Source: Bacillota bacterium (lineage in GTDB: Bacteria; Bacillota; Clostridia; Lachnospirales; Cellulosilyticaceae). From it: a stretch of DNA of 64,000 nucleotides. Below, one piece after another: positions 8,775-46,640 of the stretch (the stretch's first letter is position 1; every line of letters begins with the position of its first letter). The notes beneath the pieces were generated by a model. The model searched no databases. It was not told the DNA's origin and saw only the letters and a list, made by a program, of their open reading frames with translations. The stretch covers positions 5,302 to 69,301 of the forward strand of contig JAEYNQ010000267.1 of assembly GCA_023412455.1 (NCBI GenBank). Direction: 5' to 3'. Made by a program: the position numbers and the translations under genes.

Positions 8775-9845
8775 GTGTATAATGTCTTAGATAAGTCAAG
8801 AAGGAGAGTGGGTAATATAGATGAACAGAAAATAATCATACCTATAAGTAAATGTACGCCAGGTATGATTATACTCCAGCCTATAATAGATAAGGATACT
8901 GGCAATGTATTAGTGGGGGGACATCAAAGTTTAAGTGAAGAAGTTATCGGGCGCATTGGAAAATTTAAACATACAGAAATATGGATAAAGGCAGATGCTG
9001 AAAAACAGCTTTGGCAAGTTGACGAGAAAGTGAAGGTTAGCTATAAAAAGTACATCACCTTATTAAGGGAAATTATCGGTAATAAAGGTCCCGTTTTAGA
9101 TATACAAATTGAGGAAGTAGAAAACTTAGCTAAGTGTATAGTAGAAGAATTTGAATGCAAATTTGACTTACTCGCTTGCGTTAATCTCGTCAAGAAGATT
9201 GATAAGGATATTTATACCCATAGTATGAATGTGACTTTTTTGGCCCTATTTATTGGAAGATGGATAGGATGCCATACAGGACTTTTGAAAAATATAGCTT
9301 TGGCAGGACTATTACACGATATTGGTAAAATGGAAGCTGAGGTAAAAATAGCCAACGGGGCGAAGAAAAAATCTGCTATCATTCAGAGATTAGAGGAAAA
9401 AAGACATCCTATTTATGGCTATGAGAAACTCCTTGCTTTTAGCGAATTAGATAATGAAGTACTGGGCGCTGTCCTAGCTCATCATGAAAGGTGTGATGGA
9501 AGTGGATATCCTCTTCATCTCACCCAAGAACGCATTGGTGCAATTGGTAAGATTATAGGGCTTGCAGATGAGTATGAATTTTTGCGCAAAGACAAACATA
9601 TTTTCGAGGTAGTAAGGGTACTAAAAAATGAGAAAGTGAGACAGTTTGATAAGACAATGCTTTTAACGTTTTGTACCAATGTCATAAATTACTATATTGG
9701 TGCATCTGTTCTTTTGAGTACAGATGAGATTGCACAAGTTGCTTTTATTCAATCCCATGCGCTTCATAGGCCTATTGTAAAGATAGGTGAACGTTACATT
9801 AATCTTTATAAAGAAACTCAGATTGACATCCTTAAGGTCTTTTAG
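8775..9845 (+). CDS. HD-GYP domain phosphodiesterase (cyclic-dinucleotide hydrolase family)
   Basis: It carries the motifs HDIGK and HHERCDGSGYP. The N-terminal ~130 aa resemble the usual HD-GYP N-terminal module. The start codon is uncertain (GTG 8775 or a later codon). Confidence 0.8.
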   Translation: MYNVLDKSRRRVGNIDEQKIIIPISKCTPGMIILQPIIDKDTGNVLVGGHQSLSEEVIGRIGKFKHTEIWIKADAEKQLWQVDEKVKVSYKKYITLLREIIGNKGPVLDIQIEEVENLAKCIVEEFECKFDLLACVNLVKKIDKDIYTHSMNVTFLALFIGRWIGCHTGLLKNIALAGLLHDIGKMEAEVKIANGAKKKSAIIQRLEEKRHPIYGYEKLLAFSELDNEVLGAVLAHHERCDGSGYPLHLTQERIGAIGKIIGLADEYEFLRKDKHIFEVVRVLKNEKVRQFDKTMLLTFCTNVINYYIGASVLLSTDEIAQVAFIQSHALHRPIVKIGERYINLYKETQIDILKVF

Positions 9846-16042: not shown

Positions 16043-17527
16043 ATGGAGTTAAAATTATTTCATTATATAGATGAAGTGCTTGGTGAATTAGAGGATATTA
16101 GGGAAGAACTGGAGGAAATTAGCCAAGAGCTTGAATTATTTTTTGAGAAGCTCTTATTTACAGCAGAAAAGGGATTCGTAAATATGAATACCCGAGTAAA
16201 ATCTAAAAAAAGCTTAAAAGAAAAAATTATTCGTAATGATTATTATCAAAAGTATAATACCATAGAAACAGTACTAGAAAATGTACCAGATCTCATTGGA
16301 GTTCGAATAGAATGTCGTTTTAATCAAGATGAATCAGAACTTTATAAGTTTATTAAAAAGCAATTTAGTGAAAAATCAGATGGGTTAGAAGAATATTATT
16401 ATTGCCCAGAGAATCCGGGTGTTTTATTAGACTTAGGAGGTAAGCAACCTAAAGAGCAAAAAAATGGTGTTAAAATGTATCGTATTGATGGAAAATACAT
16501 AAAGGAGAATGCAGTCATCAATTTTGAGGTACAGATTAAATCATTAGTTAATGTCTTTTGGAGTGAAATTGAGCACAAGATTATATACAAGAACTATAAT
16601 TATGTTATTGCCGATCGGTTTTATAAGGATATTATGAAATCGATTAAGAACAGCTTATCTACTATTGACCAACAGCTTCTTCTTATTTCTAATCAATTTG
16701 AGAAGGAAGATACGACTCAATTTGATGAACGGGAGGAGCAATTAGAAAAGCTTATCTCAAAAATTATCTATGATGTATTTGCTACCCACATGAAGGAAAG
16801 TATTGGTGTACTAGTGGATTTCAGAAAATCCTGTGAAGCGATTGTAAAATATATGCTAAGAGAGACACATAAGGAAGATATGGATAGATATAGTACAAAT
16901 CTTCTTTTAGGGCTTGAACGCATTCGACAAATTGATCAAAAGAATATTGACTTTAAAAAACAGATTGTTTTTGAGAGACAGCCTCTATTTAAAGAAGAAT
17001 TAACACGAAGAATAGGAAATCACATTAAAGATAAGATGAATGAGGAATTTCAGTGGAGTTTATTTTTTACAGTCCTTTTTCAGATTGAAGCTGGGGATAA
17101 TGTAGAGGATTTTGAAAAATTTTTAGTGTACTATACCAGCAAGCTACAAGAACGTATAGCCAGTTCAAAAATAAGTGCTAATTTCACTCAAGAAGAGACA
17201 GAGCAGATTATGAATAAAATTATGCTAAAGTATGCTGATCTTTTTATACAAGTCAACTCCGTGCAACTCCTTTATGAGAATATATTGGAGCAGGTTTTGA
17301 AAATCATTAATAGTGTTATTGATGCCATCTATAGAAATATTATTACCTATGAGCAATGGGAGAAGGAACAAGGCATCTATACCGAGCTTATGGAGTTAAG
17401 GCTATTGACCTTATTTGATATGGATATCTCATCGGCTAAGGTACTTGATTTTTTAGAACATGTGAGACATAGCAAGTCAACCATTGATATTCCAAAAGGT
17501 TTATTGAAATACATCTATAAAATCTAA
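16043..17527 (+). CDS. RelA/SpoT-synthetase-fold nucleotidyltransferase fused to a ~300-aa unassigned helical C-terminal region
   Basis: The ordered motifs are R51VKSKKSLKEK, D83LIGVR, N141G, and E162VQIKS..W..E.EH178...YK183. There is no HD hydrolase domain and no TGS/ACT domain. The gene has its own promoter-like TGGTATAAT and its own terminator. Confidence 0.7.
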   Translation: MELKLFHYIDEVLGELEDIREELEEISQELELFFEKLLFTAEKGFVNMNTRVKSKKSLKEKIIRNDYYQKYNTIETVLENVPDLIGVRIECRFNQDESELYKFIKKQFSEKSDGLEEYYYCPENPGVLLDLGGKQPKEQKNGVKMYRIDGKYIKENAVINFEVQIKSLVNVFWSEIEHKIIYKNYNYVIADRFYKDIMKSIKNSLSTIDQQLLLISNQFEKEDTTQFDEREEQLEKLISKIIYDVFATHMKESIGVLVDFRKSCEAIVKYMLRETHKEDMDRYSTNLLLGLERIRQIDQKNIDFKKQIVFERQPLFKEELTRRIGNHIKDKMNEEFQWSLFFTVLFQIEAGDNVEDFEKFLVYYTSKLQERIASSKISANFTQEETEQIMNKIMLKYADLFIQVNSVQLLYENILEQVLKIINSVIDAIYRNIITYEQWEKEQGIYTELMELRLLTLFDMDISSAKVLDFLEHVRHSKSTIDIPKGLLKYIYKI

Positions 17528-17544
17528 TGAATGAAAAGGAGAAG

Positions 17545-17580
17545 GCTACTACAAAGAGTCAAAAATTGTAGTAGCTTTAT
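17545..17580 (+). terminator. Rho-independent terminator
   Basis: GCTACTACAA pairs with TTGTAGTAGC across an 11-nt loop and is followed by TTTAT. Confidence 0.65.
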
Positions 17581-17713
17581 ATATATAATTAGGTATTCAA
17601 GTTCATAAATATTAAGGATATATAGGAGCAAGATAAAAAATATGTTATAATATAAAAATGTATAAACAAGTTAATACAATATAAAATATTTCATATTATC
17701 AGGAGGAATATCA

Positions 17714-19999
17714 GTGATTAAATTATATGATGGTGGTGTTTATCTCGTTAATGGGAGAGAACTCGTAGAGGACAACAAGGAGGCTAGCAAAGTTATAGCT
17801 CAAAAATGTGGACAAGAAGTCAAAAAAGAAGAAGCTATTTGTCAAACAATAGCCTATAGTATTTTAGAGGCCCATAATACTTCAGGGAATATGGAAAAGT
17901 TAAAGATTAAATTTGATGCCATGGCTTCTCATGACATTACTTATGTAGGCATTATTCAAACAGCTAGGGCCAGTGGGCTTGAGAAATTCCCACTTCCTTA
18001 TGTATTAACCAACTGCCACAATAGCTTATGTGCAGTTGGTGGAACCATTAATGAAGATGACCATATGTTTGGGCTTTCAGCAGCAAAGAAATATGGTGGG
18101 GTTTATGTACCTGCTCATCAAGCTGTTATTCATCAATATATGCGTGAAATGATGAGTGGTTGTGGCAAAATGATTTTAGGTTCAGACAGCCACACCCGAT
18201 ATGGTGCATTAGGAACTATGGCTATTGGTGAAGGGGGAGGAGAGCTTGCTAAACAACTTCTTTCTAAAACCTATGATGTGAATCGTCCAGGCGTAGTAGC
18301 TGTTTATTTAACAGGTAAACCTCAAAAGGGGGTAGGGCCACAAGACGTAGCCCTTGCTATCATTGGTAAAGTCTTTAAAAATGGTTATGTCAAAAATAAG
18401 GTTATGGAGTTTGTAGGAGATGGTATTCAAGACTTAGGTGTGGAATATCGTAATGGTATTGATGTTATGACTACAGAGACAACCTGTCTTTCTTCTATTT
18501 GGGAGACGGATGAAAAGGTAGAAGGTTACTTTGAAAGTCATGGTCGCAAGGAAGCTTATAAGGAATTAAAACCAGGTAAAGTGGCTTATTATGATGGTGC
18601 CATTTACGTGGACTTATCCCTTATTAAACCTATGATTGCCCTTCCTTTCCATCCAAGTAATACCTATACTATTGAAGAATTAAATGCCAACCTAGAAGAT
18701 ATTTTACATACAGTCGAGGAGACAGCAAAGGCTCAATTTGCTAAAGTCAACTTTACCCTTAGAGATAAAATTATAAATGGCAAACTCATGGTACAGCAAG
18801 GGGTTATTGCAGGATGTGCAGGAGGAACCTTTGACAATATCTGTGATGCAGCAGATATTCTAAAAGGTCATACTATTGGAGCCAATGAATATGCCCTTAG
18901 TATTTATCCTTCCAGTCAGCCTACCTTTATGAGCCTTGTAGAAAATGGTGCAATCACTACCCTTATGGCAGCAGGTGCAACTATTCGTACAGCCTTCTGT
19001 GGTCCATGCTTTGGAGCAGGAGATGTGCCTCCTAATAATGGATTAAGTATCCGTCACTCTACCCGTAACTTCCCTAATCGTGAAGGCTCTAAACCAAGCG
19101 ATGGACAGCTGGCAGCAGTTGCTCTTATGGATGCACGTAGTATTGCGGCAACCTCTATTAATGGAGGTATTCTTACAGCAGCTACAGACCTTGATGTGGA
19201 ATTTACAAAGCCAAAATACTATTTTAATAGCGAAATTTACAAGACACGTTGTTATAATGGCGTAGGTAAGCCACAGCCAGAGGAAGCCCTTAAGTTTGGT
19301 CCTAATATTACAGACTGGCCTCAAATGTCCCAGCTTACAGACCACCTTGTTCTTAAAGTAGTAGCTGAGATTCATGATCCCGTTACAACCACAGATGAGC
19401 TTATTCCTTCAGGAGAAACTTCTAGCTATCGTTCAAACCCACTTAAGTTAGCAGAATTTACTCTTTCACGTCGCGTACCTGACTATGTAGAAAGAGCAAA
19501 AGAGATCCAAAAGGCAGAAGTGGCTCGATTAAATGGCGAAGACCCAACAACAGTAGATGCTGATGTACAAGCAGTATTTCATACCATAAAGACCCTTGCA
19601 GGCTTTGAAGACATTAACTCTTGTGAAGTAGGGATTGGTAGCACTATTTTTGCAGTAAAACCAGGGGACGGTTCGGCTAGAGAACAAGCAGCTTCTTGTC
19701 AAAAGGTATTAGGAGGCTGGGCTAATATTGCAAGAGAGTATGCAACCAAGCGTTATCGTTCAAACCTTATTAACTGGGGAATGATTCCTTTCGTACTAGA
19801 AGAAGAACTGAATTTCAAAAATGGGGATTTCTTATTTGTACCCCATATTAAAGAAGCAGTGGCCAATAAAATAGCAACCATTAAAGCTTATGTTATAGGC
19901 GATGAAGTAAAGAGCTTTAACCTAACGTTAGCTGATTTAACAGACGATGAAAGACAAATCATCTTAGCTGGTTGCCTCATCAACTATTATAAGAAATAG
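17714..19999 (+). CDS. Aconitate hydratase (aconitase-family Fe-S hydro-lyase)
   Basis: It has the cluster-ligand motifs GSDSHT and CGPCFG, plus a C-terminal swivel domain. It is 761 aa, with a GTG start 7 nt after AGGAGG. Confidence 0.85.
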
Positions 20000-20015
20000 T
20001 CTATCAATGATAGGG

Positions 20016-20046
20016 ATACGGAGTGAGAATACGCTCCGTATTTTTA
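20016..20046 (+). terminator. Rho-independent terminator after aconitase
   Basis: ATACGGAG pairs with CTCCGTAT and is followed by TTTTT. Confidence 0.65.
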
Positions 20047-20118
20047 GTTTGTAGGAAAGTTGGTGTGTTACACTTTCACTACTTCGCCAACCGATACGTG
20101 TCCTGTGGACACTTTTTA
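20041..20118 (+). repeat. Dispersed intergenic repeat, copy B
   Basis: It carries the same core (ACACTTTCACTACTTCGCCAACCGATACGTGT), followed by the hairpin GTGTCC-TGT-GGACAC and TTTTT. Confidence 0.7.
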
Positions 20119-20383
20119 TGACAAAGGGACAGTTCACTCATTTTTTAGTGGGACGGCCCCTTCTTTTAAATCTATAAGTCTACAGAAATAGTGCTATAAA
20201 TTGTCTATAAATATAAAAAAAGCACAATATAAAGAAAATATTAGAAAAATATGTTGACATATTAGATAAATATGATACTATTTAATTATAAAAACTAGTA
20301 TTATTAAATAGTAAAGTGGTTTAGTAGAACGGTTTAAAAGATGAATTATTCAATTCATTTTTTTATTTGATTAGTAGATAAAA

Positions 20384-20398
20384 CGGTTTACTAAACCG
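20384..20398. promoter_or_regulatory. Candidate LacI-family operator (perfect 7-1-7 palindrome)
   Basis: CGGTTTA-C-TAAACCG lies 62 nt upstream of the LacI-family gene. A related half-site AACGGTTTA sits at 20328-20336, and both are preceded by TTAGTAGA. Confidence 0.4.
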
Positions 20399-20459
20399 GT
20401 GCACCTTAGGGTCATTTGATTATTACATTAAAGAAGAGAAGAGAAGTGAGTGTATAGGT

Positions 20460-21569
20460 ATGAATAAATCGAATATTAATGATGTTGCACAATACGCAGG
20501 GGTTTCAAAGTCGACAGTATCTAATTATTTAAATCATAAATTTGAGAGTATGTCTGCTGAAACTAAAATAAAAATAGAGGAAGCTATTGAAAAATTAAAT
20601 TACACTCCAAGTTTAAGTGCACGTAGGCTGTCGGCCAAAGAGAACTGCAAGGCCATTGGTATTATTATTCCACATAATATAGGCTATGCATTTGAAAATT
20701 TATATTTTCCAATAGTACTAAGAGCTATAGGGCGTATTGCAGAAAAAATGAACAACAAGATTATTATTTTTTCCAGCGATGGGAGGGGGATAGAAAAAAG
20801 CTTAGATTATTTAAAGGGAATGGTTCCAACAGTTGTAGATGGCTTTATTTTATTTGATCTTGAACAGAATAATTTTTACTTCAAGGAATTTGAAAGAGTG
20901 AACATACCATATGTTTGTGTAGGTAAAATTGATAAGTATGAAGATTACTATTATGTAGCATCTAATCACAAAAAGGCAGTCATGGATTCAGTTAATTATC
21001 TTATTCAATTAGGACATACAAAGATAGGATTCATAATGGAGAATAGTACAAGTATTGTTTCTCAATGTCAATTTAAAGGCTATAGAGAAGTATTAGAGGA
21101 AAATAATATATCTTTAAGTAAAGAGTATTATTGCTATATTGATGAATATGGTCATAATGGGATCAATGATGCTTATCAGAAATTTAGGAGAATGCTTCAA
21201 TCTAAAGACAGACCTACAGCTATTATCACACCTATGGTTTATTTAACACCCCTATTTACTATACTTAATGAAGGAGGACTTAAAATACCCGAAGATATTT
21301 CGATTATAGTTTTAGAACATAATGATAACCATCAACTAGCACATCTCAATTTTACTAGGGTACCGTCTGCAGCAGAAAAGGTCGCTGAACTAGCATTTAG
21401 AAAGCTCATTAAAGAAATAAGCAATAAGAAGGAGTCTTTTAAATCCAAAATAATAGACCTTGAATTAGTTATTGGAGATACGACATCAAGCATTAGTATT
21501 AATGAAAGTACTAATGAAAGTACCAATGAAAGTACGGATAACAATGTAAAACCTAAACAATCATTTTAA
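20460..21569 (+). CDS. LacI-family transcriptional regulator
   Basis: The N-terminal HTH reads NINDVAQYAGVSKSTVSNYLN and is followed by a periplasmic-binding-fold core. The C-terminal tail is unusual (INESTNESTNESTDNN). Confidence 0.85.
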   Translation: MNKSNINDVAQYAGVSKSTVSNYLNHKFESMSAETKIKIEEAIEKLNYTPSLSARRLSAKENCKAIGIIIPHNIGYAFENLYFPIVLRAIGRIAEKMNNKIIIFSSDGRGIEKSLDYLKGMVPTVVDGFILFDLEQNNFYFKEFERVNIPYVCVGKIDKYEDYYYVASNHKKAVMDSVNYLIQLGHTKIGFIMENSTSIVSQCQFKGYREVLEENNISLSKEYYCYIDEYGHNGINDAYQKFRRMLQSKDRPTAIITPMVYLTPLFTILNEGGLKIPEDISIIVLEHNDNHQLAHLNFTRVPSAAEKVAELAFRKLIKEISNKKESFKSKIIDLELVIGDTTSSISINESTNESTNESTDNNVKPKQSF

Positions 21570-21598
21570 AAGCTGAGATTAAACAAGGGGGAAGAAAA

Positions 21599-22951
21599 AT
21601 GAGAAAATTTAAAAAAATAATGGTATTACTTATGTCGACAATGATGGCCTTAACTACAGCATGTGCACCAAGTACTCCAACTAAGGAAAATGTAAAGGCA
21701 GAGGAGACAGCAAAGACTGAAGAGACAAAAGAGCCAGAAAAAGCTCCTGAGGAGAAGCAAAAAATTATCTTCTGGGATAAGTCAGAGTATGTTAAAGAAT
21801 ATAATGAAATGATGGCAGAAAAATGTAAAGCTTTTACAGCACAGACTGGTATTGAAGTAGATTATGTAATCATTCCACCTAATGATCTTAAGCAAAAGAT
21901 CATGGCAGGTATTGAAGCTAAGAATGTACCGGATTTAATCGTTGGAGATGATGCACTTTGTGCACAGTTTGTTACGATGGATCAAATAGCTGAAGTACCA
22001 GAGCTTAATGCAAAATTAAATCTTAACGAGGCAGCTCAAGGTATTGCAAAGCTCAATGATAAAGAGTTTCTAACACCACTGGCATTTCTTGCACCAGGTA
22101 TGTACTGGAGAAAAGATATGTGGGAAGCAAAAGGGCTTGCAATGCCAACAACGTGGGAAGAACTTAAGGAGCATGCAAAAAAAGTCAATGATCCACAGAA
22201 TGGTTTCTATGCTCTTGGCTTCCCAATGGGGGCATCAGGAGGCGGCGATGCAGAAGGTTTCATGAGATCTGTTATTAATAGCTTTGGTGGAAAAGTTGTG
22301 GATGAAACGGGTAAGGTAACTGTAAATTCTAAAGAAACGTTAGAGGCACTTAAATATGTTGCTTCATTATTTGATGAGGGGTTAGTACCACCAGATGCAA
22401 TCACTTGGGATGATATGGGAAATAATAACGCTTATCTTGCAGGTACTGTAGGAGTTATCTTCAACTCGGGTTCTGTTTGGTCAACACTTAATAAAGAAAA
22501 TCCTGATCTTTTAGCAAAAACTCAAATTATTGCTTATCCAAAGGGACCAACAGGAGAAGCGTTTGTACCTGGTGGAAGTAATGTATTTGCAACATTTAAA
22601 AATGGCAAAAATCCAGAAGGCGCAAAACAATTAATCGAATTTATATTTAGTGATAAAGCAGCTTATCAACAACTAGTAGAAGCTATGGGCGGTATGTGGC
22701 AGCCAGTAACTAACGAAAGTGATGATACAGAATTCTGGAAACAGCCTATTAATGCAGGTTGGCTTGCAAACTCAAAAGCAGTTGCAAGAACCTTTGCTCC
22801 AGCTCCAACAGATGAATTTGCTCAGCAAGTTTTTGCAAATCAAGTATGTGTTAAAGCTATGCAAAAGATCATTGTTAATAAGATGGATCCACAGCAGGCA
22901 CTTAATGAACTCGAAGCTGAGGTGACAGAAGTATATAAAAACAGAAAATAA
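21599..22951 (+). CDS. ABC transporter extracellular solute-binding lipoprotein (carbohydrate family)
   Basis: It has a lipobox (LTTAC) after a signal peptide and an acidic linker. It is 450 aa and is followed by two MalF/MalG-type permease genes. Confidence 0.85.
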   Translation: MRKFKKIMVLLMSTMMALTTACAPSTPTKENVKAEETAKTEETKEPEKAPEEKQKIIFWDKSEYVKEYNEMMAEKCKAFTAQTGIEVDYVIIPPNDLKQKIMAGIEAKNVPDLIVGDDALCAQFVTMDQIAEVPELNAKLNLNEAAQGIAKLNDKEFLTPLAFLAPGMYWRKDMWEAKGLAMPTTWEELKEHAKKVNDPQNGFYALGFPMGASGGGDAEGFMRSVINSFGGKVVDETGKVTVNSKETLEALKYVASLFDEGLVPPDAITWDDMGNNNAYLAGTVGVIFNSGSVWSTLNKENPDLLAKTQIIAYPKGPTGEAFVPGGSNVFATFKNGKNPEGAKQLIEFIFSDKAAYQQLVEAMGGMWQPVTNESDDTEFWKQPINAGWLANSKAVARTFAPAPTDEFAQQVFANQVCVKAMQKIIVNKMDPQQALNELEAEVTEVYKNRK

Positions 22952-23108
22952 ACTTTTGTATTCCTGGTAGAAAGAATTCTTCTCTAAGAAGAGTATAGGG
23001 TATTTAGATTTAATAATAACTGTTCAAACCCTGCCGTGGACAGTTATTATACTAAAATTTACCGACATAAACTTACCGGTTACGGCGACGGATAAATAAT
23101 GGAGGCAT

Positions 23109-23996
23109 ATGTTATTTAAAACTAACAAAAATTCTATAACACGGTCAGACAAGATGTTAGGAATATTGTTCATCATACCGGTAGTCATTGTCATATTTGG
23201 TATTATGGGCATTCCTTTTATAAGAGCAGTCTATTTAAGTTTTACAGACAAGGTGGTAGGAAGACAAGAACAGTTTGTTGGATTACAAAACTATATAAGG
23301 CTGTTTAAAGATCCTACTTATTGGAAGGTTGTTAAGAATACCATTGTCTATACGATTGGAGGAGTGGGCGTCAAGCTAATATTTGGCATGATGTTAGCGC
23401 TTGTTTTAAATCAAAGATTTATAGGGAGAGGATTTTTTAGGACAGTATTGTTGCTGCCATGGGCACTGCCTGGGATGGTAGCAGCAATGACTTGGAGATG
23501 GATGTATGACAGTACTTATGGCATCATCAATAGTATTCTATTATCTTTAAATATAATACAAATGCCTATACCTTGGCTTAGTCTCCCCAGTATTACACTC
23601 TATACAGTTATGATTGTCAATATATGGAGAGGGGTACCTTTCTTTTTGTTTAGCCTGCTGGGGGGACTTCAAACAATTGATGGTCAAATGTATGAAGCAG
23701 CATATGTGGATGGAGCAGGCGTTATCAGGCAGTTTTTTGCCATTACACTACCATCAATAGCTAGTGTTTTGAAGATTACAACATTACTGTCGCTGATTTG
23801 GACATTTAATGACTTTGAGAATATTTTCCTAGTAACAGGTGGTGGGCCGCTTTATTCATCATCAGTTATATCCACCTATACATATGATTTAGCATTGATT
23901 CAAAATGCATTTGGAGCTTCTTTAGCAACGGCGGTATCTGTCGTTCCACTACTTATTGTTGTCATAGTGTTTTCGACAAAAACAAAGGAAAATTGA
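23109..23996 (+). CDS. Carbohydrate ABC transporter permease (MalF/UgpA-like)
   Basis: It has 6 TM segments and the EAA loop YEAAYVDGAGVIRQFFAITLP. Confidence 0.85.
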   Translation: MLFKTNKNSITRSDKMLGILFIIPVVIVIFGIMGIPFIRAVYLSFTDKVVGRQEQFVGLQNYIRLFKDPTYWKVVKNTIVYTIGGVGVKLIFGMMLALVLNQRFIGRGFFRTVLLLPWALPGMVAAMTWRWMYDSTYGIINSILLSLNIIQMPIPWLSLPSITLYTVMIVNIWRGVPFFLFSLLGGLQTIDGQMYEAAYVDGAGVIRQFFAITLPSIASVLKITTLLSLIWTFNDFENIFLVTGGGPLYSSSVISTYTYDLALIQNAFGASLATAVSVVPLLIVVIVFSTKTKEN

Positions 23997-24009
23997 GGAG
24001 GATAAAAGC

Positions 24010-24849
24010 GTGGTTATCAGCAAAAAAAGTAAAATATTAAGATGTTTTTTAACCTATGGGATTTTAGTTATCTCCTTAATTTTCACTTTGTTTCCCTTCT
24101 ACTGGATGCTTAAATCTTCTATAACAGTCAACAAACAGATGTATCTTCCAAGACCTAAGTTAATCCCAACAGAAATAACGTTTGAGCATTATACAGCACT
24201 CTTTAAACAAACGGGTTTTATGCAAAATATGTATAATAGCTTTTATGTAGCTACTATAACGACAGTTATTTGTTTAGTCATTAGTATTTTAGGCTCCTAT
24301 GCTTTAACAAGGCTGAGATTTCCGTTTAGGAAATTCTTTAGTCAAAGTATCATTATATCTTATCTTTTACCAACAGCAGTTTTATTTATTCCAATGTATG
24401 TAACCATCAGTGCATTAGGCTTTAATGATAACAAAAATGGCCTTCTTATTATTTATCCAACTTTTGTAGTACCGTACTGTTGTTACATGCTTCGCAGTTA
24501 CTTTGAAGCAGTGCCCTACTCTTTGGAAGAAGCAGCTATGATAGATGGATGTAATAGATTTATGTCTATGATCAAGATTGTACTTCCGATTGCAGCACCT
24601 GGAATTGCAGTTGTTGCAACTTTTGCCTACACCATGTGCTGGAATGAATACTTGTATGCACTTATTATGACAACAAGTCCACTACAGCAAACAGTAACTG
24701 TAGGAATTTCTAGTTTTAAATTCTCAGACCAAGCTATTTGGGGTCTCATTATGAGTGCTTCTACTATAGCTTCCTTACCGGTAGTTGTCATATATGTTTT
24801 GGCACAAAGCTGGCTTATTTCAGGTAAAGCAGACGGAAGCGTTAAATAA
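24010..24849 (+). CDS. Carbohydrate ABC transporter permease (MalG/UgpE-like)
   Basis: It has a GTG start and the EAA loop LEEAAMIDGCNRFMSMIKIVLP. Confidence 0.85.
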   Translation: MVISKKSKILRCFLTYGILVISLIFTLFPFYWMLKSSITVNKQMYLPRPKLIPTEITFEHYTALFKQTGFMQNMYNSFYVATITTVICLVISILGSYALTRLRFPFRKFFSQSIIISYLLPTAVLFIPMYVTISALGFNDNKNGLLIIYPTFVVPYCCYMLRSYFEAVPYSLEEAAMIDGCNRFMSMIKIVLPIAAPGIAVVATFAYTMCWNEYLYALIMTTSPLQQTVTVGISSFKFSDQAIWGLIMSASTIASLPVVVIYVLAQSWLISGKADGSVK

Positions 24850-24889
24850 ATTAACCTAATCATCACTAATTACAGAAAGAGGATAAAAT

Positions 24890-26266
24890 ATGAATGAAAA
24901 AGTTGAGAGTTATGAGAAGGTATTAGATTATGTCAATACGAGATCAAGACCTTCAGAATTACGTATTACAGATCTAAGAGTTGTCGATATTGTAGACGCA
25001 CCTATGCATTGTATGCTTGTTAAAATCTATACCAATCAAGGATTAGTAGGATATGGCGAAGTGAGGGATGGTGCCTCGAGAAATTTTGTGCTCGCCTTAA
25101 AGAGCAGGATTATAGGTGAAAACCCATGTGAGATTGATAAGTTGTTCAGAAGGATTAAACAATTTGGTGGGCATGCAAGACAAGGGGGAGGCGTATGTGC
25201 TATAGAGCTTGCTTTGTGGGATTTAGCAGGTAAAGCATATGGGATTCCCGTGTATCAAATGCTTGGAGGTAAGTTTAGAGACAGTATACGTATGTATTGT
25301 GATACAGATATTGAAGGAAAACATAATGGTACAGAAATGGGTAGGGCACTTAGAGCACGTATGGATAAGGGATTTACTTTTTTAAAGATGGATTTAGGTA
25401 TTGATCTTCTTTATGAAGAACCTGGAACCCTCACTGCACCTTTAGGTTTTGTTAAGGAACTTAACCAAACAAAGGCCTATGCACCTATTCGGAGGAGCTT
25501 AACTGATAGAGAGAGAATGGAGAGAGCAAGATACTATGATATCCAAAATATACCTCATCCATTTACTGGTATTCAAGTAACAGAAAAGGGTTATGATATT
25601 TTAGAACAATATGTGGCAGATGTCAGAAAAGAAATAGGATATGATATTCCACTTGCTATTGACCACTTTGGACATATTGGTGTGGAAGCCTGTATCAGAC
25701 TGGCAAGGAGAATTGAAAAGTATAACATCGCATGGATGGAAGATATGATTCCATGGCAGCTTACAGATCAGTATGTAAGACTTGCAAATTCTACAAGTAT
25801 ACCTATTTGTACAGGTGAAGACATTTTCCTAAAAGAAAACTTCAGACCATTATTAGAAAAGGGCGGTGTTTCAGTGATTCATCCGGATATCTTAACATCA
25901 GGAGGAATTCTTGAAAATAAGAAAATCGGAGATATGGCAGCAGAGTATGGTGTAGCAATGGCAGTACATATGGCAGAGAGCCCGATAGCTTGTATGGCAG
26001 CAGTACATAGCATTGCAGCAACTGAGAATTTCTTGGCGCTGGAATTCCATTCTAATGATGTACCATGGTGGAACGATCTTGTTAATGGCCTTCCTAAACC
26101 AATCGTACAGAATGGATTTATTAAGGTGCCGGATACACCAGGCCTTGGGATTGAGTCTCTTAATGATGAAGTCATCGCCCAACATCTTCACCCAGACTAT
26201 AAAGGTATGTGGGAACCAACGAATGAGTGGGATCATGACTACTCCCATGACCGTACCTGGAGTTAA
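24890..26266 (+). CDS. Enolase-superfamily (mandelate racemase/muconate lactonizing family) acid-sugar dehydratase-like enzyme
   Basis: The capping domain reads LVKIYTNQGLVGYGE. The barrel metal ligands appear in the expected order (AIDHFGH, AWMEDM, CTGEDIF). At 458 aa it is longer than typical ~400-aa members. Confidence 0.78.
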   Translation: MNEKVESYEKVLDYVNTRSRPSELRITDLRVVDIVDAPMHCMLVKIYTNQGLVGYGEVRDGASRNFVLALKSRIIGENPCEIDKLFRRIKQFGGHARQGGGVCAIELALWDLAGKAYGIPVYQMLGGKFRDSIRMYCDTDIEGKHNGTEMGRALRARMDKGFTFLKMDLGIDLLYEEPGTLTAPLGFVKELNQTKAYAPIRRSLTDRERMERARYYDIQNIPHPFTGIQVTEKGYDILEQYVADVRKEIGYDIPLAIDHFGHIGVEACIRLARRIEKYNIAWMEDMIPWQLTDQYVRLANSTSIPICTGEDIFLKENFRPLLEKGGVSVIHPDILTSGGILENKKIGDMAAEYGVAMAVHMAESPIACMAAVHSIAATENFLALEFHSNDVPWWNDLVNGLPKPIVQNGFIKVPDTPGLGIESLNDEVIAQHLHPDYKGMWEPTNEWDHDYSHDRTWS

Positions 26267-26313
26267 TCTTTATAAACAAAAAAAATATAGCATAAAGGGA
26301 GAGGTATAAAGCA

Positions 26314-27009
26314 ATGGATATTAATGAAATCAGGAGTGTTAGAGAGCGTTTTCTTAAGTGTACCTATTCAGCAGATATTTATGATGTAATGGATAGGATG
26401 GGTTATGAAAATCAATGTCTTGATCTTAAGATTAAACCTCTTAATGAGAAATGGAAAGTATGTGGGCCAGCAGTAACTGTTTTAGGAACAAGAGAACCTT
26501 TAACAGAAGAAGAACTGCACCCAGAACCGGATTTCGATAAATTTTGGATGTTTAAACACTTTTATGAAGGCTGCGTTGTTGTTATTAATGCAGAAAGAGA
26601 AGAAAACAGTGGTGCTTGGGGAGAGATGATGAGCTATGGGGCCAGAAACATAGGAGCAGCTGGTGTTGTCATTGATGGAGGCACAAGAGATAAGGCGGGG
26701 ATTTTGGATATAGATAATTGGGCTTGTTTTGCAAAATATACAACACCTGTTGAATCATTAAAGAGGTGGCGACCTAAAGAAATGATGCAGCCTATTTATA
26801 TGTCCGGTACACTTACCAGTGCTGTGAGGGTAAATCCAGGAGATTGGATATTTGGTGACTGTGATGCAGTAATGGTTATTCCTCAAGAAATAGTTTATCA
26901 AGTTTTAGAAGCAGTCGAAGATGTTTCAAATAGAGAAGTGCTTTCACGTCAAGCATTTAAAGAGGGAAAGACTATTAACGAAGTCTTTGAGCTTTATAAT
27001 AGAGCATAA
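26314..27009 (+). CDS. RraA-family protein (RraA-like / HMG-CHA-type class II aldolase-decarboxylase fold)
   Basis: The signature GAWGEMMSYGARNIGAAGVVIDGGTRD is characteristic of the RraA/aldolase family. Confidence 0.72.
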   Translation: MDINEIRSVRERFLKCTYSADIYDVMDRMGYENQCLDLKIKPLNEKWKVCGPAVTVLGTREPLTEEELHPEPDFDKFWMFKHFYEGCVVVINAEREENSGAWGEMMSYGARNIGAAGVVIDGGTRDKAGILDIDNWACFAKYTTPVESLKRWRPKEMMQPIYMSGTLTSAVRVNPGDWIFGDCDAVMVIPQEIVYQVLEAVEDVSNREVLSRQAFKEGKTINEVFELYNRA

Positions 27010-27085: not shown

Positions 27086-28081
27086 TTATAATTTTGAATA
27101 TTCTGAGCTGACATACTTCATAGGGCGTGTATCTGTTGTTGGGAGTCCTGTTAAATAGGATAAATTGGGTAGCAACTCCTTGAAATCTTGATAGGAGAGA
27201 TTAGAAGTTACGAAATCATAAGTGGCTTGAAGCAAGGTAAGACTCTTTTTAGTGGCATTTCGTAAAATATCATGGAAGCTAAAGGTATAAACGTTACCGG
27301 TTACTGGATGAAGCCAGACCTTTTTGTTGGTATTCAGATAATTAATTAAAGGATCTACGCAATGATAGTATGAGAAATTATTGGTATAGGTGACGAGCTT
27401 CTTAGGGAGCATGAAGCTTGTAGAGGAAACTAGGGCTTTTTTTGCACCCAAGCTATCAAAGGTAAGCTTGTAGTAGAGCCGTGTATCTTCGTAGGATTTC
27501 TTGAAAATAGCTCCCCCATTACTGATGCCATAGAGTAAAAAGAGTGTCTCATCATATAAGTTAAGAAGACAGGTGGGTAAGTGAGTGAGTGTAAGAATGT
27601 GCTTATTAATATTAAATTGATGGGCTTTTTTGGAAAGACGTTGTTCAAGGAGAAGCGCGTCAATGGCTAATTCGATCTTTTTGTGTAAGCCTTCAAATAC
27701 CTTGGTTTCAGGAGAATCTTCTACATAGCGACCACCTAAATAAAAGATGTAAGGATGGGCTATAGAATCCAGTATGTAGTGGCATAAAAAACCACACATA
27801 TAGCTTAAAAGTTGGTTGAACTCCTTAGAATCCACATCGTATCGCTTAAGATGAGAAAGAGCAGAAATAATGAATTCACCTGTTTTTTCTGTATGCATTT
27901 TAGAAGCAATATGGGCATAGGCTCGTTTTTGTTTGTGAAAGGCATAGTACATAAAATCAGGGCCTTGAAGTCCTATCAAAAATAAATCCCTATGCTCTTT
28001 AATAATAGGATATAGAGGAGAAGGCTTGAGGTTTTGAGTGGCGTTTAATCCAAAGAGGTAGTGAGTAATTATATCTGGCAT
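27086..28081 (-). CDS. Hypothetical protein, possibly of the zinc-dependent phospholipase C-like family
   Basis: It has His-rich motifs (MPDIITHYLFG, HIASKMHTE, LDSIAHPYIF) that resemble proteins annotated in this family. The call is from memory only. Confidence 0.4.
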   Translation of the reverse strand: MPDIITHYLFGLNATQNLKPSPLYPIIKEHRDLFLIGLQGPDFMYYAFHKQKRAYAHIASKMHTEKTGEFIISALSHLKRYDVDSKEFNQLLSYMCGFLCHYILDSIAHPYIFYLGGRYVEDSPETKVFEGLHKKIELAIDALLLEQRLSKKAHQFNINKHILTLTHLPTCLLNLYDETLFLLYGISNGGAIFKKSYEDTRLYYKLTFDSLGAKKALVSSTSFMLPKKLVTYTNNFSYYHCVDPLINYLNTNKKVWLHPVTGNVYTFSFHDILRNATKKSLTLLQATYDFVTSNLSYQDFKELLPNLSYLTGLPTTDTRPMKYVSSEYSKL

Positions 28082-28160
28082 CGAAAAAACTCCTTTATTT
28101 TCAACTGATTACCCTCAGTATAGCACTATGTGTTTTTGAAAAATAGGGTAAGTTTTTAAT

Positions 28161-28190
28161 AAAAAAAAACTCCTTTTAACGGGAGTTTTT
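28161..28190 (-). terminator. Rho-independent terminator after the tagO-like gene
   Basis: On the minus strand, AAACTCCC pairs with GGAGTTT and is followed by TTTTTTTT. Confidence 0.6.
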
Positions 28191-28197
28191 GGCGAAA

Positions 28198-29250
28198 TTA
28201 ATTTTCATCATTTTTATCATGACTAGTCATAGCTTTCATATTAAAATAAAGTAGAAAGCCCATCATTAAAAAAACAATAAATACAAACTTTACACTTCGG
28301 TTGAAAAAGGCGATAGCAGACAAGCCAAGTATTCCGCTAATACCATATAAGGTCACAACAGCCTGCTTTTGAGAATACCCTTTATCCACTAAACGGTGAT
28401 GTAAATGTCCCCTATCTGGTGACATAATAGGTTTTCCAGCTAAGGCACGTCTAATAATGGCAAAAGCTGTATCAAAGATAGGAAGACCTAGAACAAGTAC
28501 AGCTATAAAGATGGTTGCCATAGTATACCCTTTTAATAAACCTAATATAGAAGTAACGGCTAGAGTAAACCCTAGAAAAGTAGAACCTGTATCTCCCATA
28601 AAAATAGAGGCAGGGTTAAAATTATAGGGTAAGAAACCAATACACGCTCCTGCTAAAGTAGCCGTAAGCACTACAGCTGGTACATAGCCTGTAGAAATAG
28701 ATAAAGTCATAAGGCTAAGGGCTGCAATGGAAGAGATACCAGCAGCTAGTCCATCCAGGCCGTCAATTAAGTTAACAGCATTGGTAATACCTACAATCCA
28801 AATAACAGTAGCTGGGATAGAGAAAATAGTTGTAGAAAAAAAACTATCTCCAATAAAAGGAACAGATATAAAATTAATGCGAATGCCACAAAGGGCAACA
28901 ATACTAGCAGCAGTTATTTGAAGTAGGAATTTCAATTTAGCATTTAGTTCATAAATATCATCAAAGAAGCCTAAGAAAAAGATAATGAAGGCTCCAAGGA
29001 TAATTCCTATATTTTGTTTGGTATCAATAATAGGCATATACTTCATCACGATAAAGTAAGTAATCATAAAACCTAGAAAGATAGCAATTCCCCCCATACG
29101 AGGAATAGGTTTTTTATGCATATCACGCTTACGGGGTTTAGCAATAGCACCTACTTTAAAGGCTATTTTTTTTGCTAAAGGAGTAGTGAAAAATGCAATT
29201 AGAAATGCCATTACAAAAGCAACAAGATAGAGAGCCATATAGCCACTCAT
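28198..29250 (-). CDS. tagO: Glycosyltransferase family 4 (MraY/WecA/TagO-type undecaprenyl-phosphate HexNAc-1-phosphate transferase)
   Basis: It is polytopic with the motifs NAVNLIDGLDGLA and FMGDTGS. It is 350 aa. Confidence 0.78.
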   Translation of the reverse strand: MSGYMALYLVAFVMAFLIAFFTTPLAKKIAFKVGAIAKPRKRDMHKKPIPRMGGIAIFLGFMITYFIVMKYMPIIDTKQNIGIILGAFIIFFLGFFDDIYELNAKLKFLLQITAASIVALCGIRINFISVPFIGDSFFSTTIFSIPATVIWIVGITNAVNLIDGLDGLAAGISSIAALSLMTLSISTGYVPAVVLTATLAGACIGFLPYNFNPASIFMGDTGSTFLGFTLAVTSILGLLKGYTMATIFIAVLVLGLPIFDTAFAIIRRALAGKPIMSPDRGHLHHRLVDKGYSQKQAVVTLYGISGILGLSAIAFFNRSVKFVFIVFLMMGFLLYFNMKAMTSHDKNDEN

Positions 29251-29426
29251 ATTTTCATCTCCTTAAATATGTATCCTACTACTTAATACATATATTTTAT
29301 ACTTATAGTTAATTAATATACCATAAATAGAAAAAGTAGTATTGTAAAAAATTACATAATAATAATTAATTCGCCTAGAAGGTTACTAGCTGACAAGGAA
29401 ACCTCCTAGGCTATTTGATTTAAATG

Positions 29427-30068
<642 letters not shown>

Positions 30069-30113
30069 CTAATGTATGATATTTACTTAGTTATCCCTTT
30101 ATAAAAAGTAAAA

Positions 30114-30542
30114 TTAATCTTCGATTTTACAAATTCTTCGTGCGTGGCGTTCATCGTTGGAAAAGGCTGTATTTAAAAAGGTATCTACAACCTTGATGGC
30201 ATGAGAAGGTCCAATGACACGGCCACCTAAAGCAATAATATTGGCATCATTATGGAGACGAGTTGCCTCAGCAGAGAAAACATCGTGACAAAGAGCACAA
30301 CGAATGCCTTTGATTCTATTGGCAGAAATAGATATACCAATACCTGTACCACATATTAAAATGCCTTTTTCACATTCACCATTTAAAACAGCATGAGCCA
30401 CTGTTTTGGCATAGTCTGGATAATCAACAGCATCTTCTGTATAACAACCAAAATCTTTAAAAGCTAAATTCTGAGCTTTCAAGTAATTAATGATTTCTTG
30501 TTTAAGAGCAAATCCACCGTGATCACTAGCAATAGCTATCAT
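30114..30542 (-). CDS. rpiB: Ribose-5-phosphate isomerase B
   Basis: It has MIAIASDHGG and the CGTGIGISISANR motif. The start is placed at the Met of MIAIASDHGG, 6 codons inside the track ORF. Confidence 0.9.
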   Translation of the reverse strand: MIAIASDHGGFALKQEIINYLKAQNLAFKDFGCYTEDAVDYPDYAKTVAHAVLNGECEKGILICGTGIGISISANRIKGIRCALCHDVFSAEATRLHNDANIIALGGRVIGPSHAIKVVDTFLNTAFSNDERHARRICKIED

Positions 30543-30668
30543 AATATATCCTCCAATCAATTATAGTATACCTAAATAGTGTTATAACTATAGAGTAATT
30601 ATTGAACAGAACAAAAAGGATGTGGACACATCTAGCTTATTATAAGGCTTTACTAAGCACTTGTCTAT

Positions 30669-31703
30669 TTAAACCTTAAGGATGTGATGTCCAGCTGACT
30701 TTTCTAGACGATTCATAATGGCACCACCTATGCCTTTTTTGGGAAAAGCAAAGGAGTAGACAATGTCAATTTTTTCATCATCAAAGTGGCGAAGCGTCTC
30801 AAAAAGATGAGCTGCTACTTTATCTAATTCCTCAAAAGTCCCTACACTTAAGATAAGGTCTGCTGTAAAGCAGTCTTTCGTCTCATCGGTAGCAAGAACG
30901 CCTACACGCTTATGTTCTTGCTGAGCTGTAAGTATAAGCGCTGTGATGGCACTTATTACTTGAGAGGTTTCACCCTCTACAATAATCACTTCAGCGTTAG
31001 GTGAATAATGTGCGTATTTCATGCCAGGCGCTTTTGGGAGCTGATCTTCTTTAAGAGAACCCAAAATAGCGGGATCTATAGTGACGTTAGGAACAAGAGC
31101 TTGTAACATTTCAAAGGTAACGCCACCTGGGCGAAGAATGGTGAGCACCTCAGAGGTTGTATCCACCACAGTAGACTCCACACCTACACTACAATCCCCA
31201 CCATCTATAATGGCGTCAATTTTACCATTCAAGTCTTCTATAACCCGCTTAGCATTAGTGGGACTAGGCTTGCCAGAAGTATTGGCACTAGGAGCAGCCA
31301 GAGGAAGGCGTGACACTTCAATAAGCTTTTGAATAATGGGATGAGAAGGGAAGCGAATAGCTACTGTATCTAAGCCACCTGTTACAACTTTGGAAACCTT
31401 AGGACTTGCCTTAAAGACAAGAGTAAGGGGGCCGGGCCAGAAAGCTTCCATAAGGAGCTGGGCCATAGGGGAAATCTCAGTGACTAAGTCCTCCAACATA
31501 TGGAGATTGGCAATATGTATAATCAGAGGATTGTCATTAGGACGCCCTTTAGCTTTGAAAATATTAGTAACTGCTTGTATATCAAAGGCATTAGCAGCCA
31601 AACCATAAACCGTTTCGGTAGGAACAGCTACTAAACCGCCTGCCCTCAGGATATCAGCAGCTTGAGATAAATCATCTGAGGGAGAAATGATAAGAGTATT
31701 CAT
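30669..31703 (-). CDS. tsaC: L-threonylcarbamoyladenylate synthase (Sua5/YwlC type with C-terminal Sua5 domain)
   Basis: It has the YrdC-domain motif VAVPTETVYGLAANA and is 344 aa long (long form). Confidence 0.85.
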   Translation of the reverse strand: MNTLIISPSDDLSQAADILRAGGLVAVPTETVYGLAANAFDIQAVTNIFKAKGRPNDNPLIIHIANLHMLEDLVTEISPMAQLLMEAFWPGPLTLVFKASPKVSKVVTGGLDTVAIRFPSHPIIQKLIEVSRLPLAAPSANTSGKPSPTNAKRVIEDLNGKIDAIIDGGDCSVGVESTVVDTTSEVLTILRPGGVTFEMLQALVPNVTIDPAILGSLKEDQLPKAPGMKYAHYSPNAEVIIVEGETSQVISAITALILTAQQEHKRVGVLATDETKDCFTADLILSVGTFEELDKVAAHLFETLRHFDDEKIDIVYSFAFPKKGIGGAIMNRLEKSAGHHILKV

Positions 31704-46100: not shown

Positions 46101-46298
46101 TACAGTACGTGTTAAGATATGGCCAATATGAGGTTTGCCATTAGCTGTTGGGGGGCCATCGTAAAAGGTAAATACAGGTCCACCCTCTCTTGATTTAATT
46201 GATTCTTCAAATACATTGTTTTGCTTCCAAAACTCTAAGACTTCAAGTTCTCTGTCTACAAAGTTAAGGGCAGCGTCGACTTTTTTGTACATTGTCAT
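43158..46298 (-). CDS. ileS: Isoleucine--tRNA ligase (long, type-2 form)
   Basis: It has the HIGH motif (PPTANGKPHIGH) and the KMSKS motif (KMSKHKGN), is 1046 aa, and is preceded by an Ile T-box. Confidence 0.95.
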   Translation of the reverse strand: MTMYKKVDAALNFVDRELEVLEFWKQNNVFEESIKSREGGPVFTFYDGPPTANGKPHIGHILTRTVKDIMPRYKAMKGYKVLRKAGWDTHGLPVELEVEKLLGISGKPQIEDYGIEPFIEKCKESVWKYQNEWEKMSDRVGYWVDMENPYVTYDNNYIESVWWSLKEIWNKDLIYKGHKIVPYCPRCGTSLSSHEVAQGYKDIKDQTATCRFKVMGEENTYLLAWTTTPWTLPSNVALCVNPNHTYVKATFEGATYILAESLVESVLGTEGVEIRAKFPGKELCGLEYAPLFTCGKLDKKAFFVVADDYVTLTDGTGIVHIAPAFGEDDARVGRSNNLPFLQLVNEQGHFTEEFTAVFPHLTDVFVKEADKDILKYLREQGTLFKTIPHTHSYPHCWRCDTPLIYYARDTWFIEMTKVRDNLVKNNNTVNWMPPSIGEGRFGNFLEGVIDWGLSRSRYWGTPLPIWECKCGHKHMIGSIQELKAMSSDCPDAIELHKPYIDNVHLNCPECGGTMTRVSDVIDCWYDSGSMPFAQLHYPFENKEVFEENFPADFISEAVDQTRGWFYTLMAISTLIFDQSPYKNVIVLGHVGDKDGVKMSKHKGNVVDPWSVLDVQGADAVRWYFYSASAPWLPSRFAGENVSESQRKFMGTFWNTYAFYVLYANIDNFDPTQYELKYDTLNRMDKWILSRLHTVVQNVDEHLENYRIFEAAREMQDFIDDVSNWYVRRSRERFWQSDMPQDKVNAYKTLHTVLVTLAKIAAPFIPFMAEQIYQNLVRSVDETAPLSVHLCDFPAFDQGMIDKNLEKHMNEVLDIVVLGRSCRNESNIKNRQPIGTMYVGATEILPEEFISIVAEELNVKHVEFTTEAADFISYSFKPQMRTLGPKYGKMLNAIRTALTELDGTAAMAELNAKGVLKLTIEDQTIELTKEDLLISTAQKEGYVAATDNGYTVVIDTNLTEELLEEGFVREIISKIQTMRKEANFEVQDHIEVAYTDNDRVATIMAKHADYIASEVLAHRVGAGTLEGGFTKDWNINGEAVTLTVKKA

Positions 46299-46344: not shown

Positions 46345-46605
46345 GAGCATAAAAAGAGCCCCTTCATCCATTAACAGGACGAAAGAGCGTATTGACGTCA
46401 TCTTCCGCGGTACCACCTGATTTGCCTAATGAGGCCACTCGTTATACCTTTCCTTACGATAACGGTAGGAAACCGTCAGAGCCTACTTAGACAATCTGTC
46501 TCTTTTCAGTCTGCCACTCCAAGGTGATTTTTCCTATTTATTAGCATATGGGCTTCCACCAACCCCACTCGCTTGAACGCATCGTAAATAGTACTAGTCC
46601 TTTTC
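46345..46605 (-). promoter_or_regulatory. T-box leader, Ile specifier (AUC)
   Basis: On the minus strand it has AATCAGGTGGTACCGCG (T-box, plus-strand 46407-46418 region) and the F-box CCGTTA. The specifier loop reads GGAAAAATCACC, with AUC at 46528-46526. The terminator GCTCTTTCGTCC...GGATGAAGGGGCTCTTTTT spans 46351-46390. Confidence 0.85.
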
Positions 46606-46640
46606 ATTGTGTTTATAAGCTTATAAAAATTAATAGTAAT

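Follow-up and report, generated by a model that had tools for sequence, protein, structure and literature searches.

What does the protein encoded at positions 16043–17527 (+) of the 64,000-nucleotide stretch we analyzed (the window; contig JAEYNQ010000267.1, from a Bacillota bacterium of the Cellulosilyticaceae) do with a RelA/SpoT-type synthetase fold joined to a long C-terminal region? An earlier note on this DNA had proposed a fused toxic small alarmone synthetase (toxSAS) of the CapRel kind, acting as sensor or effector and belonging to an undescribed subfamily; its alternative was an alarmone synthetase regulated through a sensor domain of a new kind. The evidence favors the alternative. 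We consider the protein probably a chromosomal two-domain small alarmone synthetase (SAS) of Bacillota, that is, a regulated alarmone synthetase with an uncharacterized sensor or regulatory domain, and most likely not a phage-defense toxin.

The 494-amino-acid (aa) open reading frame (ORF) is confirmed in the window, starting with ATG and including its stop codon, and hundreds of full-length homologs show that it is not a chance ORF; we annotate it as the coding sequence of a cloRel-type SAS. Pfam RelA_SpoT (PF04607) matches residues 50–185 (16190–16597, +) with 58.3 bits against a cutoff of 27 (E = 1.1e-15), which bears out the fold that had been proposed. It is the sole Pfam family above its cutoff, so the protein has no HD, TGS or ACT domain, again as had been claimed. 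In the AlphaFold2 (AF2) model, a RelP/RelQ-like synthetase module occupies residues 1–220 (16043–16702, +), an assignment that draws also on Foldseek and hhalign, and comprises two N-terminal helices, a five-stranded synthetase (SYNTH) core and helix alpha5 (residues 191–220). The acidic coiled segment described at the N-terminus is present, but it is not an extra element: it aligns and models as the two N-terminal helices of RelP/RelQ.

To assign roles to residues, we combined a phmmer alignment to Staphylococcus aureus RelP (SaRelP) with published roles (PMC5794853, PMC7983052, PMC11782079), and conservation was counted in an alignment of 239 full-length homologs. The predicted donor-site and catalytic residues within 50–185 are R51, K53, S57, K61, R64, D83, G86, R88, E162, Q164, H178, Y182 and K183. 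R51/K53, S57, K61 and R64 align with SaRelP R78/K80, S84, K88 and R91, which bind the ATP phosphates, and D83 and E162 align with D107 and E174, the Mg2+ ligands (PMC5794853, PMC7983052). R51 and R88 map to the two arginines that sandwich the donor adenine (PMC11782079). K53, K61, D83, G86, E162, Q164, H178, Y182 and K183 are identical in all 239 homologs, and R51 (238), S57 (237) and R64 (232) nearly so; judged from this alignment, the putative donor-site and Mg2+ residues are invariant or close to it across the family.

The motifs lie where the earlier note had placed them: RVKSKKSLKEK at 51–61, DLIGVR at 83–88, NG at 141–142, GVKMYRI at 142–148 and EVQIKS..W.EIEH...YK at 162–183. Residues 135–150 (16445–16492, +) form an extended G-loop, the predicted acceptor site, which reads QPKEQKNGVKMYRIDG and can be compared with P146-KENG-Y151-R152 of RelP. 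The family form, QPxxQKNGxxxYR, is about 5 residues longer between the proline and the tyrosine (QP-KE-QK-NG-VKM-YR versus P-KE-NG-YR). P136 aligns with SaRelP Pro146, which makes the RelP G-loop rigid (PMC5794853), and Y146-R147 with the stacking pair Tyr151-Arg152. P136 and N141 are found in all 239 homologs, Q135 in 234, Q139 in 236, Y146 in 210 (F in 26) and R147 in 203 (K in 36), and the arginine of the 'QIRT' motif is a lysine, K166, in 236. Both the variant G-loop and ExQIK are thus fixed across the homologs, and we regard them as family traits rather than one-off oddities. Helix alpha5 carries an invariant D209-x-Q211-L212 motif.

In place of a tree against FaRel, PhRel and CapRel, relatives were ranked by hidden Markov model (HMM) score and by Foldseek. 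Searches of the PDB with phmmer and with a 65-sequence profile yielded RelP/RelQ chains (up to 42 bits), long Rel faintly, and nothing else of the superfamily; even at E ≤ 10 neither search picked up a toxSAS chain, CapRel included. Foldseek with the full-length model ranked SaRelP, Bacillus subtilis RelQ/RelP and streptococcal SAS first among PDB entries (E 5e-8 to 2e-5, template modeling (TM) score 0.60–0.75, ~215 columns), followed by the exported Streptomyces SAS 8vx3 (E 3e-4), FaRel2 (E 7e-4, TM 0.41) and CapRel 7ztb (E 2.2e-3, TM 0.35, root-mean-square deviation 13 Å). The NCBIfam YjbM equivalog NF053588 scored 34.4 bits against a cutoff of 320, and no RelP model matched. Among PDB proteins the predicted catalytic module is therefore nearest to RelP/RelQ by sequence and by modeled fold, yet it lies outside RelQ and RelP.

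The protein also differs from RelP and RelQ in the region beyond helix alpha5. A short, low-confidence linker (residues 221–225) leads in the AF2 model to an all-alpha domain of 13 helices spanning residues 225–494 (16715–17524, +). Modeled alone, this domain is compact and confidently folded (predicted local distance difference test, pLDDT, 90.4; predicted TM score, pTM, 0.87). The long helical region without a recognized motif described in the earlier note is borne out: the C-terminal ~270 aa have no Pfam, NCBIfam or PADLOC match, and Foldseek with the domain model found no structural relative, its best hits reaching E = 1.7 among PDB entries and E = 1.5 in the viral BFVD. We set aside a profile match to the PPAT 1vlh (E 0.0085) as spurious, PPAT being alpha/beta and the domain all-alpha. 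Since it folds confidently and has no structural relative, the domain stands out as a candidate sensor module of a new kind that would control alarmone synthesis.

Conservation within the C-terminal domain is considerable. Across 65 sequences that share 43–97% overall identity, 18 of its positions are invariant, among them K240, Y243, G255, C264 and Y270. Its hallmark, NxEFxW..FF.iLF.IE...N at residues 333–353, contains the invariant motif N333-xx-F336-x-W338-xx-F341-F342-xx-L345-F346-xx-E349-xxx-N353 in the same sequences. Within the Cellulosilyticaceae, identity ranges from 43 to 96% in the C-terminal domain versus 60 to 98% in the catalytic module; Clostridium and Paenibacillus members are 30–43% identical in the C-terminal domain, whose length is stable. 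By these alignments the domain is somewhat faster-evolving than the catalytic module, but conserved and not hypervariable. Database homologs included no stand-alone C-terminal domain and no split gene. Short entries (P0199, P0224, P0246 and others) that might have passed for stand-alone domains look like contig-edge fragments; P0199, for one, begins with the first base of its contig. In two distant members from Oscillospiraceae metagenomes, P0229 (743 aa) and P0253 (782 aa), the synthetase module is preceded by 230–300 additional residues with no Pfam or PADLOC match.

The family is large. One homolog search returned more than 1,000 proteins at E ≤ 1e-10, and in NCBI there are members annotated as GTP pyrophosphokinase or (p)ppGpp synthetase. 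Cellulosilyticaceae members come from Sporanaerobium (82% identity), Cellulosilyticum, Zhenhengia, Niameybacter and Holtiella, and full-length homologs beyond this family from Epulopiscium, many Clostridium, Sarcina, Vallitalea and some Paenibacillus, Brevibacillus and Ectobacillus. A branch of 448–460 aa is found in Tissierellia (Tissierella), Acetoanaerobium, Oscillospiraceae and Breznakia.

A survey of homologs for patchy distribution and defense-island neighbors had been proposed in the earlier note, and in the Cellulosilyticaceae it revealed a core gene in fixed synteny, which speaks against the defense idea. In ~30 genomes of this family, leftward-reading MORN-repeat, spmB and spmA genes are followed by abrB and the synthetase gene, both reading rightward. 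On the 3′ side stands either aconitase or a block of leftward genes (PLC-like, tagO-like, upp, rpiB, tsaC, tdk). In the window, the MORN-repeat/spmB/spmA/abrB block covers 13391–15905. The PLC-like/tagO-like/upp/rpiB/tsaC block, which lies directly 3′ of the synthetase gene in other genera, is at 27086–31703, separated from it by aconitase, a LacI-type regulator and an ABC sugar-uptake cluster (17714–27009). The identity of the synthetase to the window protein declines in step with that of SpmA, SpmB, the MORN-repeat protein and aconitase, which points to vertical descent at a stable locus within the Cellulosilyticaceae. No second gene for a RelA/SpoT homolog (RSH) occurs in the 64-kb window.

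We then asked whether the family had been seen before. In 2011, Atkinson, Tenson and Hauryliuk listed an SAS subgroup in Firmicutes, 'cloRel', marked '[S]' for a synthetase domain only, without an account of a C-terminal domain, function or context (PMC3153485). Its members came from Clostridium tetani E88, three C. difficile strains, three C. perfringens strains and Finegoldia magna; all eight genomes have Rel, most have RelP and none has RelQ (PMC3153485). For C. tetani E88 the 2011 tables give Rel, RelP and cloRel and no other enzyme of this kind (PMC3153485). Its homolog of the window protein, AAO35055.1, is 535 aa long, matches PF04607 with 70.7 bits, has no HD domain and is ~45% identical to the window protein, so by elimination it would be the cloRel entry. 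The family is thus most probably the cloRel subgroup of 2011. This, together with the existing NCBI names, argues against the claim that the subfamily is undescribed. The same architecture could not be confirmed for the C. difficile and C. perfringens cloRel proteins.

How might such an enzyme work? We propose that it transfers the beta,gamma-pyrophosphate of ATP to the 3′-OH of a purine nucleotide, most likely GTP, GDP or GMP, which would yield (pp)pGpp. It would supplement long Rel and possibly replace RelQ, which none of the eight cloRel genomes of the 2011 survey contains. The C-terminal domain could gate this activity on binding a ligand or partner, or could alter the oligomeric state. 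One plausible route leads through alpha5, which in the window protein runs directly into the C-terminal domain, to the G-loop. In RelQ, rotation of alpha5 places an acidic residue on the Arg after the G-loop Tyr, with the effect that the loop becomes ordered and the enzyme active (PMC5794853); the C-terminal domain would pull the same lever as allosteric pppGpp does there.

The closest relative of the window catalytic module, ahead of RelP/RelQ, is an unnamed SAS family of 370–395 aa, which aligns to residues 9–217 with an hhalign E of 3e-36 and shares 35% identity with the window protein. The two families have in common a QKNGxKIY(K/R) G-loop, ExQIK and the alpha5 D-x-Q-L motif. In each copy of the unnamed family examined, a DndB/DGQHR-family gene follows directly 3′ of the SAS gene. 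The pairs (L081:4857–7041, L083:5001–7231 and L087:5001–7159, all outside the window) occupy three independent contexts: the conjugative Lactococcus plasmid pUCCL630B, a site between degV and an SDR gene, and a defence-like block with Dcm methylase-MutH-Vsr, a 965-aa SIR2 (SIR2_2) protein and TnpV. PADLOC contains no model for this SAS, and from gene order the pair looks like an undescribed two-gene candidate defense module. The wider clade therefore probably includes a defense module, and the unusual G-loop common to both families may signal a non-canonical acceptor.

Several points weigh against a regulated guanosine alarmone synthetase as we have described it. The acceptor cannot be read from the sequence, the G-loop being atypical and the ExQIRT Arg a Lys in 236 of 239 homologs. 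The nearest outgroup SAS is DndB-paired and sits once in a defense island, so the clade may not be guanosine-specific. Outside the Cellulosilyticaceae the genomic context is not conserved, and presence within Clostridium is patchy. The full-length AF2 model (pLDDT 83, pTM 0.55) leaves the geometry of inter-domain contacts uncertain. In addition, the identification with cloRel rests on elimination and not on the HMMs of the 2011 authors, and our search of the literature on cloRel or a clostridial third synthetase found only the 2011 catalog and no characterized member.

A rival reading is that the protein is a housekeeping pyrophosphokinase with a signaling role that uses a non-guanosine acceptor, making (pp)pApp or modifying another 3′-OH substrate, with the longer G-loop setting its specificity. 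The family strictly conserves both the longer loop and the R-to-K change and is only ~20% identical to RelP/RelQ, and adenosine-specific SAS enzymes that use the same donor site exist (PMC11782079). Yet the loop keeps its stacking Tyr-Arg and the proline typical of RelP, and RelP and RelQ remain the best structural and sequence matches. The absence of RelQ from the eight cloRel genomes, a small sample, also fits a (p)ppGpp-synthetase role being filled. On balance we consider a non-guanosine acceptor unlikely, and a guanosine nucleotide the better guess.

It is tempting to go further and speculate that cloRel and the DndB-paired SAS form a distinct clade of RSH pyrophosphokinases, with a lengthened G-loop that takes an acceptor other than GDP or GTP. 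The C-terminal domain of the chromosomal branch would then be a cis gate that domesticated a toxin-grade enzyme into a self-regulated clostridial dormancy or stress switch, or into a core-genome immune sensor. We regard this scenario as rather improbable.

The CapRel-like proposal of the earlier note fares worse. In a reading of this kind the protein would be a fused toxin-antitoxin or defense system whose pyrophosphokinase is toxic, targets tRNA or makes (pp)pApp, and is held inhibited in cis until a phage or stress signal arrives. A single polypeptide with SYNTH and a long C-terminal domain is what it would predict; the non-canonical G-loop and ExQIK, the position outside the RelP/RelQ equivalogs and the patchiness within Clostridium are in line with it, as are the DndB pairing of the closest outgroup and its copies beside Dcm-MutH-Vsr/SIR2 and on the conjugative Lactococcus plasmid. 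Most of the features examined in the window family itself point the other way. Fixed synteny and vertical inheritance prevail across the Cellulosilyticaceae, where the neighbors are housekeeping genes, and apart from this synteny no conserved partner or antitoxin gene was found in 80 loci. Elsewhere, the 124 nearest neighbors in 48 non-Cellulosilyticaceae loci are mostly symporters, MatE, amino-acid permeases, histidine kinases, RNase J and RlmL; they show no defense enrichment, and their PADLOC matches are to generic methyltransferases and helicases. PADLOC gave no match for the window protein either, a result that carries the proviso that the presence of a CapRel model in its library was not confirmed. 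A tblastn search of 50,697 phage records returned no full-length copy and only four weak matches confined to SYNTH, and among plasmids copies occurred only on the C. butyricum 0.7–0.9 Mb megaplasmid and on chromosomes filed as plasmids by mistake. By Foldseek the catalytic domain is much less similar to CapRel and FaRel2 than to RelP/RelQ; the ~270-aa all-alpha C-terminal domain resembles no PDB chain, CapRel included, and is conserved rather than diversifying. A defense toxin of the CapRel kind thus seems very unlikely for this locus.

An alarmone synthetase linked to sporulation or dormancy, its C-terminal domain tied to a sporulation-specific partner, is just as hard to credit: abrB, spmA and spmB adjoin the gene in the Cellulosilyticaceae and most of the named hosts form endospores (Clostridium, Epulopiscium, Paenibacillus, Brevibacillus, Sarcina), but the promoter is sigma-A-like with no sporulation-type (sigma-F/E/G/K) promoter evident at the window gene or at orthologous loci, the gene is divergent from spmAB and insulated by a terminator from spmAB and abrB, and this linkage is lost outside the Cellulosilyticaceae. 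Finegoldia magna, moreover, is not known to sporulate. It is among the organisms listed with cloRel (PMC3153485).

Transcription signals around the gene are in keeping with the earlier claim of a separate transcription unit with terminators on both sides, the hairpins lying at 15913–15938 and 17542–17578. The first belongs to the intrinsic terminator of the upstream abrB-like gene (15913–15948, +; an 11-bp stem and a 4-nt loop, then TTTTATATTT), which with its T run parts abrB from the synthetase gene. The gene has a sigma-A-type promoter (15940–15967, +) with a -35 box TTTATA at 15940–15945, a 16-nt spacer and an extended -10 box, TGgTATAAT; a pattern scan gave 10 of 12 consensus matches with the TG present. 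The extended -10 reported by the earlier note is therefore real, but its coordinates (15957–15965) were off: TGGTATAAT occupies 15959–15967, two bases to the right. A TGnTATAAT or TAnTATAAT/TATACT box stands ~60–80 nt 5′ of the start in most orthologous loci.

The 5′ leader contains a tandem repeat (15979–16016, +), 3.9 copies of the 10-nt A-tract unit ATATAAAAAG at helical-phase spacing. Among the orthologous leaders compared, locus L001, which is 97% identical, is the sole other one to have this repeat, one copy shorter; from L002 onward, Sporanaerobium hydrogeniformans included, it is missing. The repeat is thus a lineage-specific feature that probably has no conserved regulatory role. An Rfam scan of the leader found no family. 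Reading of the sequence places a Shine-Dalgarno-like AAGGG (16032–16036, +) 6 nt upstream of the ATG, and the conserved family N-terminus MELKxFxFI supports the annotated start. Beyond the stop codon lies a terminator-like hairpin (17542–17589, +) with a 13-bp stem and an 11-nt loop, then UUUAUAUAUAU. Its stem-loop, 17542–17578, has a folding energy of -15.5 kcal/mol (z = -4.18, matched by 0 of 200 shuffles) and is followed by UUUAUAUAU; the pattern scan did not call it because the 11-nt loop exceeds the 8-nt limit. With these signals the synthetase gene is predicted to be a lone transcription unit with its own sigma-A-type promoter.

Other features of the window deserve brief mention. Two paralogues of ~355 aa (8775–9845 and 12062–13129, both +) show HD...HHERxDGSGYP, which by sequence reading is an HD-GYP phosphodiesterase-type signature; they flank a small gene cluster, and both recur in related genomes. 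At 10409–10684 (-) is a 91-aa ORF starting MSCGCSNSCGCNS. A longer, loosely similar Cys/Gly/Asn-rich ORF is found at a comparable position in several Cellulosilyticum loci and does not cluster with it. Farther downstream, a T-box leader (46372–46616, -; 120.5 bits against a cutoff of 93) lies directly upstream of a 1046-aa ORF (43158–46298, -) that looks like isoleucyl-tRNA synthetase from its N-terminal sequence, an ordinary arrangement.

The locus matters beyond this genome as one representative of a large family that extends to pathogens, with a C. tetani member, and in which no member has a known product, regulator or phenotype. Work on C. difficile mentions RSH and RelQ alone; should the 2011 entry for that organism mean the cloRel-type family, current models of stringent signaling in clostridia with these two synthetases would lack a third enzyme.

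How, finally, does the protein compare with known systems? Among PDB proteins it is most like RelP and RelQ. They are its best sequence matches (6fgk 42 bits, 6ewz 34 bits) and best PDB fold matches (E 5e-8, TM 0.66–0.75 over ~215 residues), and they have the same helix-helix-SYNTH-alpha5 layout, identical donor-site and Mg2+ residues and chromosomal, monocistronic genes; the G-loop retains the RelP-type proline and the Tyr-Arg pair. In contrast, the window protein is only ~20% identical to them and below the YjbM equivalog cutoff, and it is 494 aa long versus 210–230 aa for these single-domain enzymes. Its G-loop QPKEQKNGVKMYRIDG and EVQIKS replace the canonical (P)xxNGYRSxH and EIQIRT, and a 270-aa C-terminal domain takes the place of the short end that forms the RelP/RelQ tetramer interface.

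With CapRel (CapRelSJ46, PDB 7ZTB) it has in common a single polypeptide in which an RSH synthetase-fold domain is joined to a C-terminal domain that could regulate it in cis. However, the C-terminal domain of the window protein is a large all-alpha bundle that matched no PDB chain, not a pseudo-zinc-finger, and the family occupies a fixed core-genome locus instead of being phage- or plasmid-borne, the C. butyricum megaplasmid apart. FaRel, FaRel2, PhRel and PhRel2 share the RSH synthetase fold and donor-site chemistry. Unlike these bicistronic toxSAS, the window family has no conserved adjacent small gene, its gene has its own promoter and terminators, and FaRel2 matches the fold only at E 7e-4 and TM 0.41. 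The DndB-paired SAS differ in that their C-terminal 170 residues are unrelated to the window C-terminal domain, and the window protein has no DndB-like partner.

The catalogued group to which the family probably belongs is cloRel. The taxonomic ranges match, lying in Firmicutes and mainly in Clostridia, with Clostridium and a Tissierellia-type branch that is consistent with Finegoldia, whereas the Cellulosilyticaceae lay outside the 2011 sample. With its SYNTH match, its predicted catalytic residues and none of the HD, TGS or ACT domains, the window protein falls within the RSH small alarmone synthetase class, and its gene is an ordinary ortholog of an uncharacterized SAS subgroup, most probably already catalogued, rather than a new kind of system.

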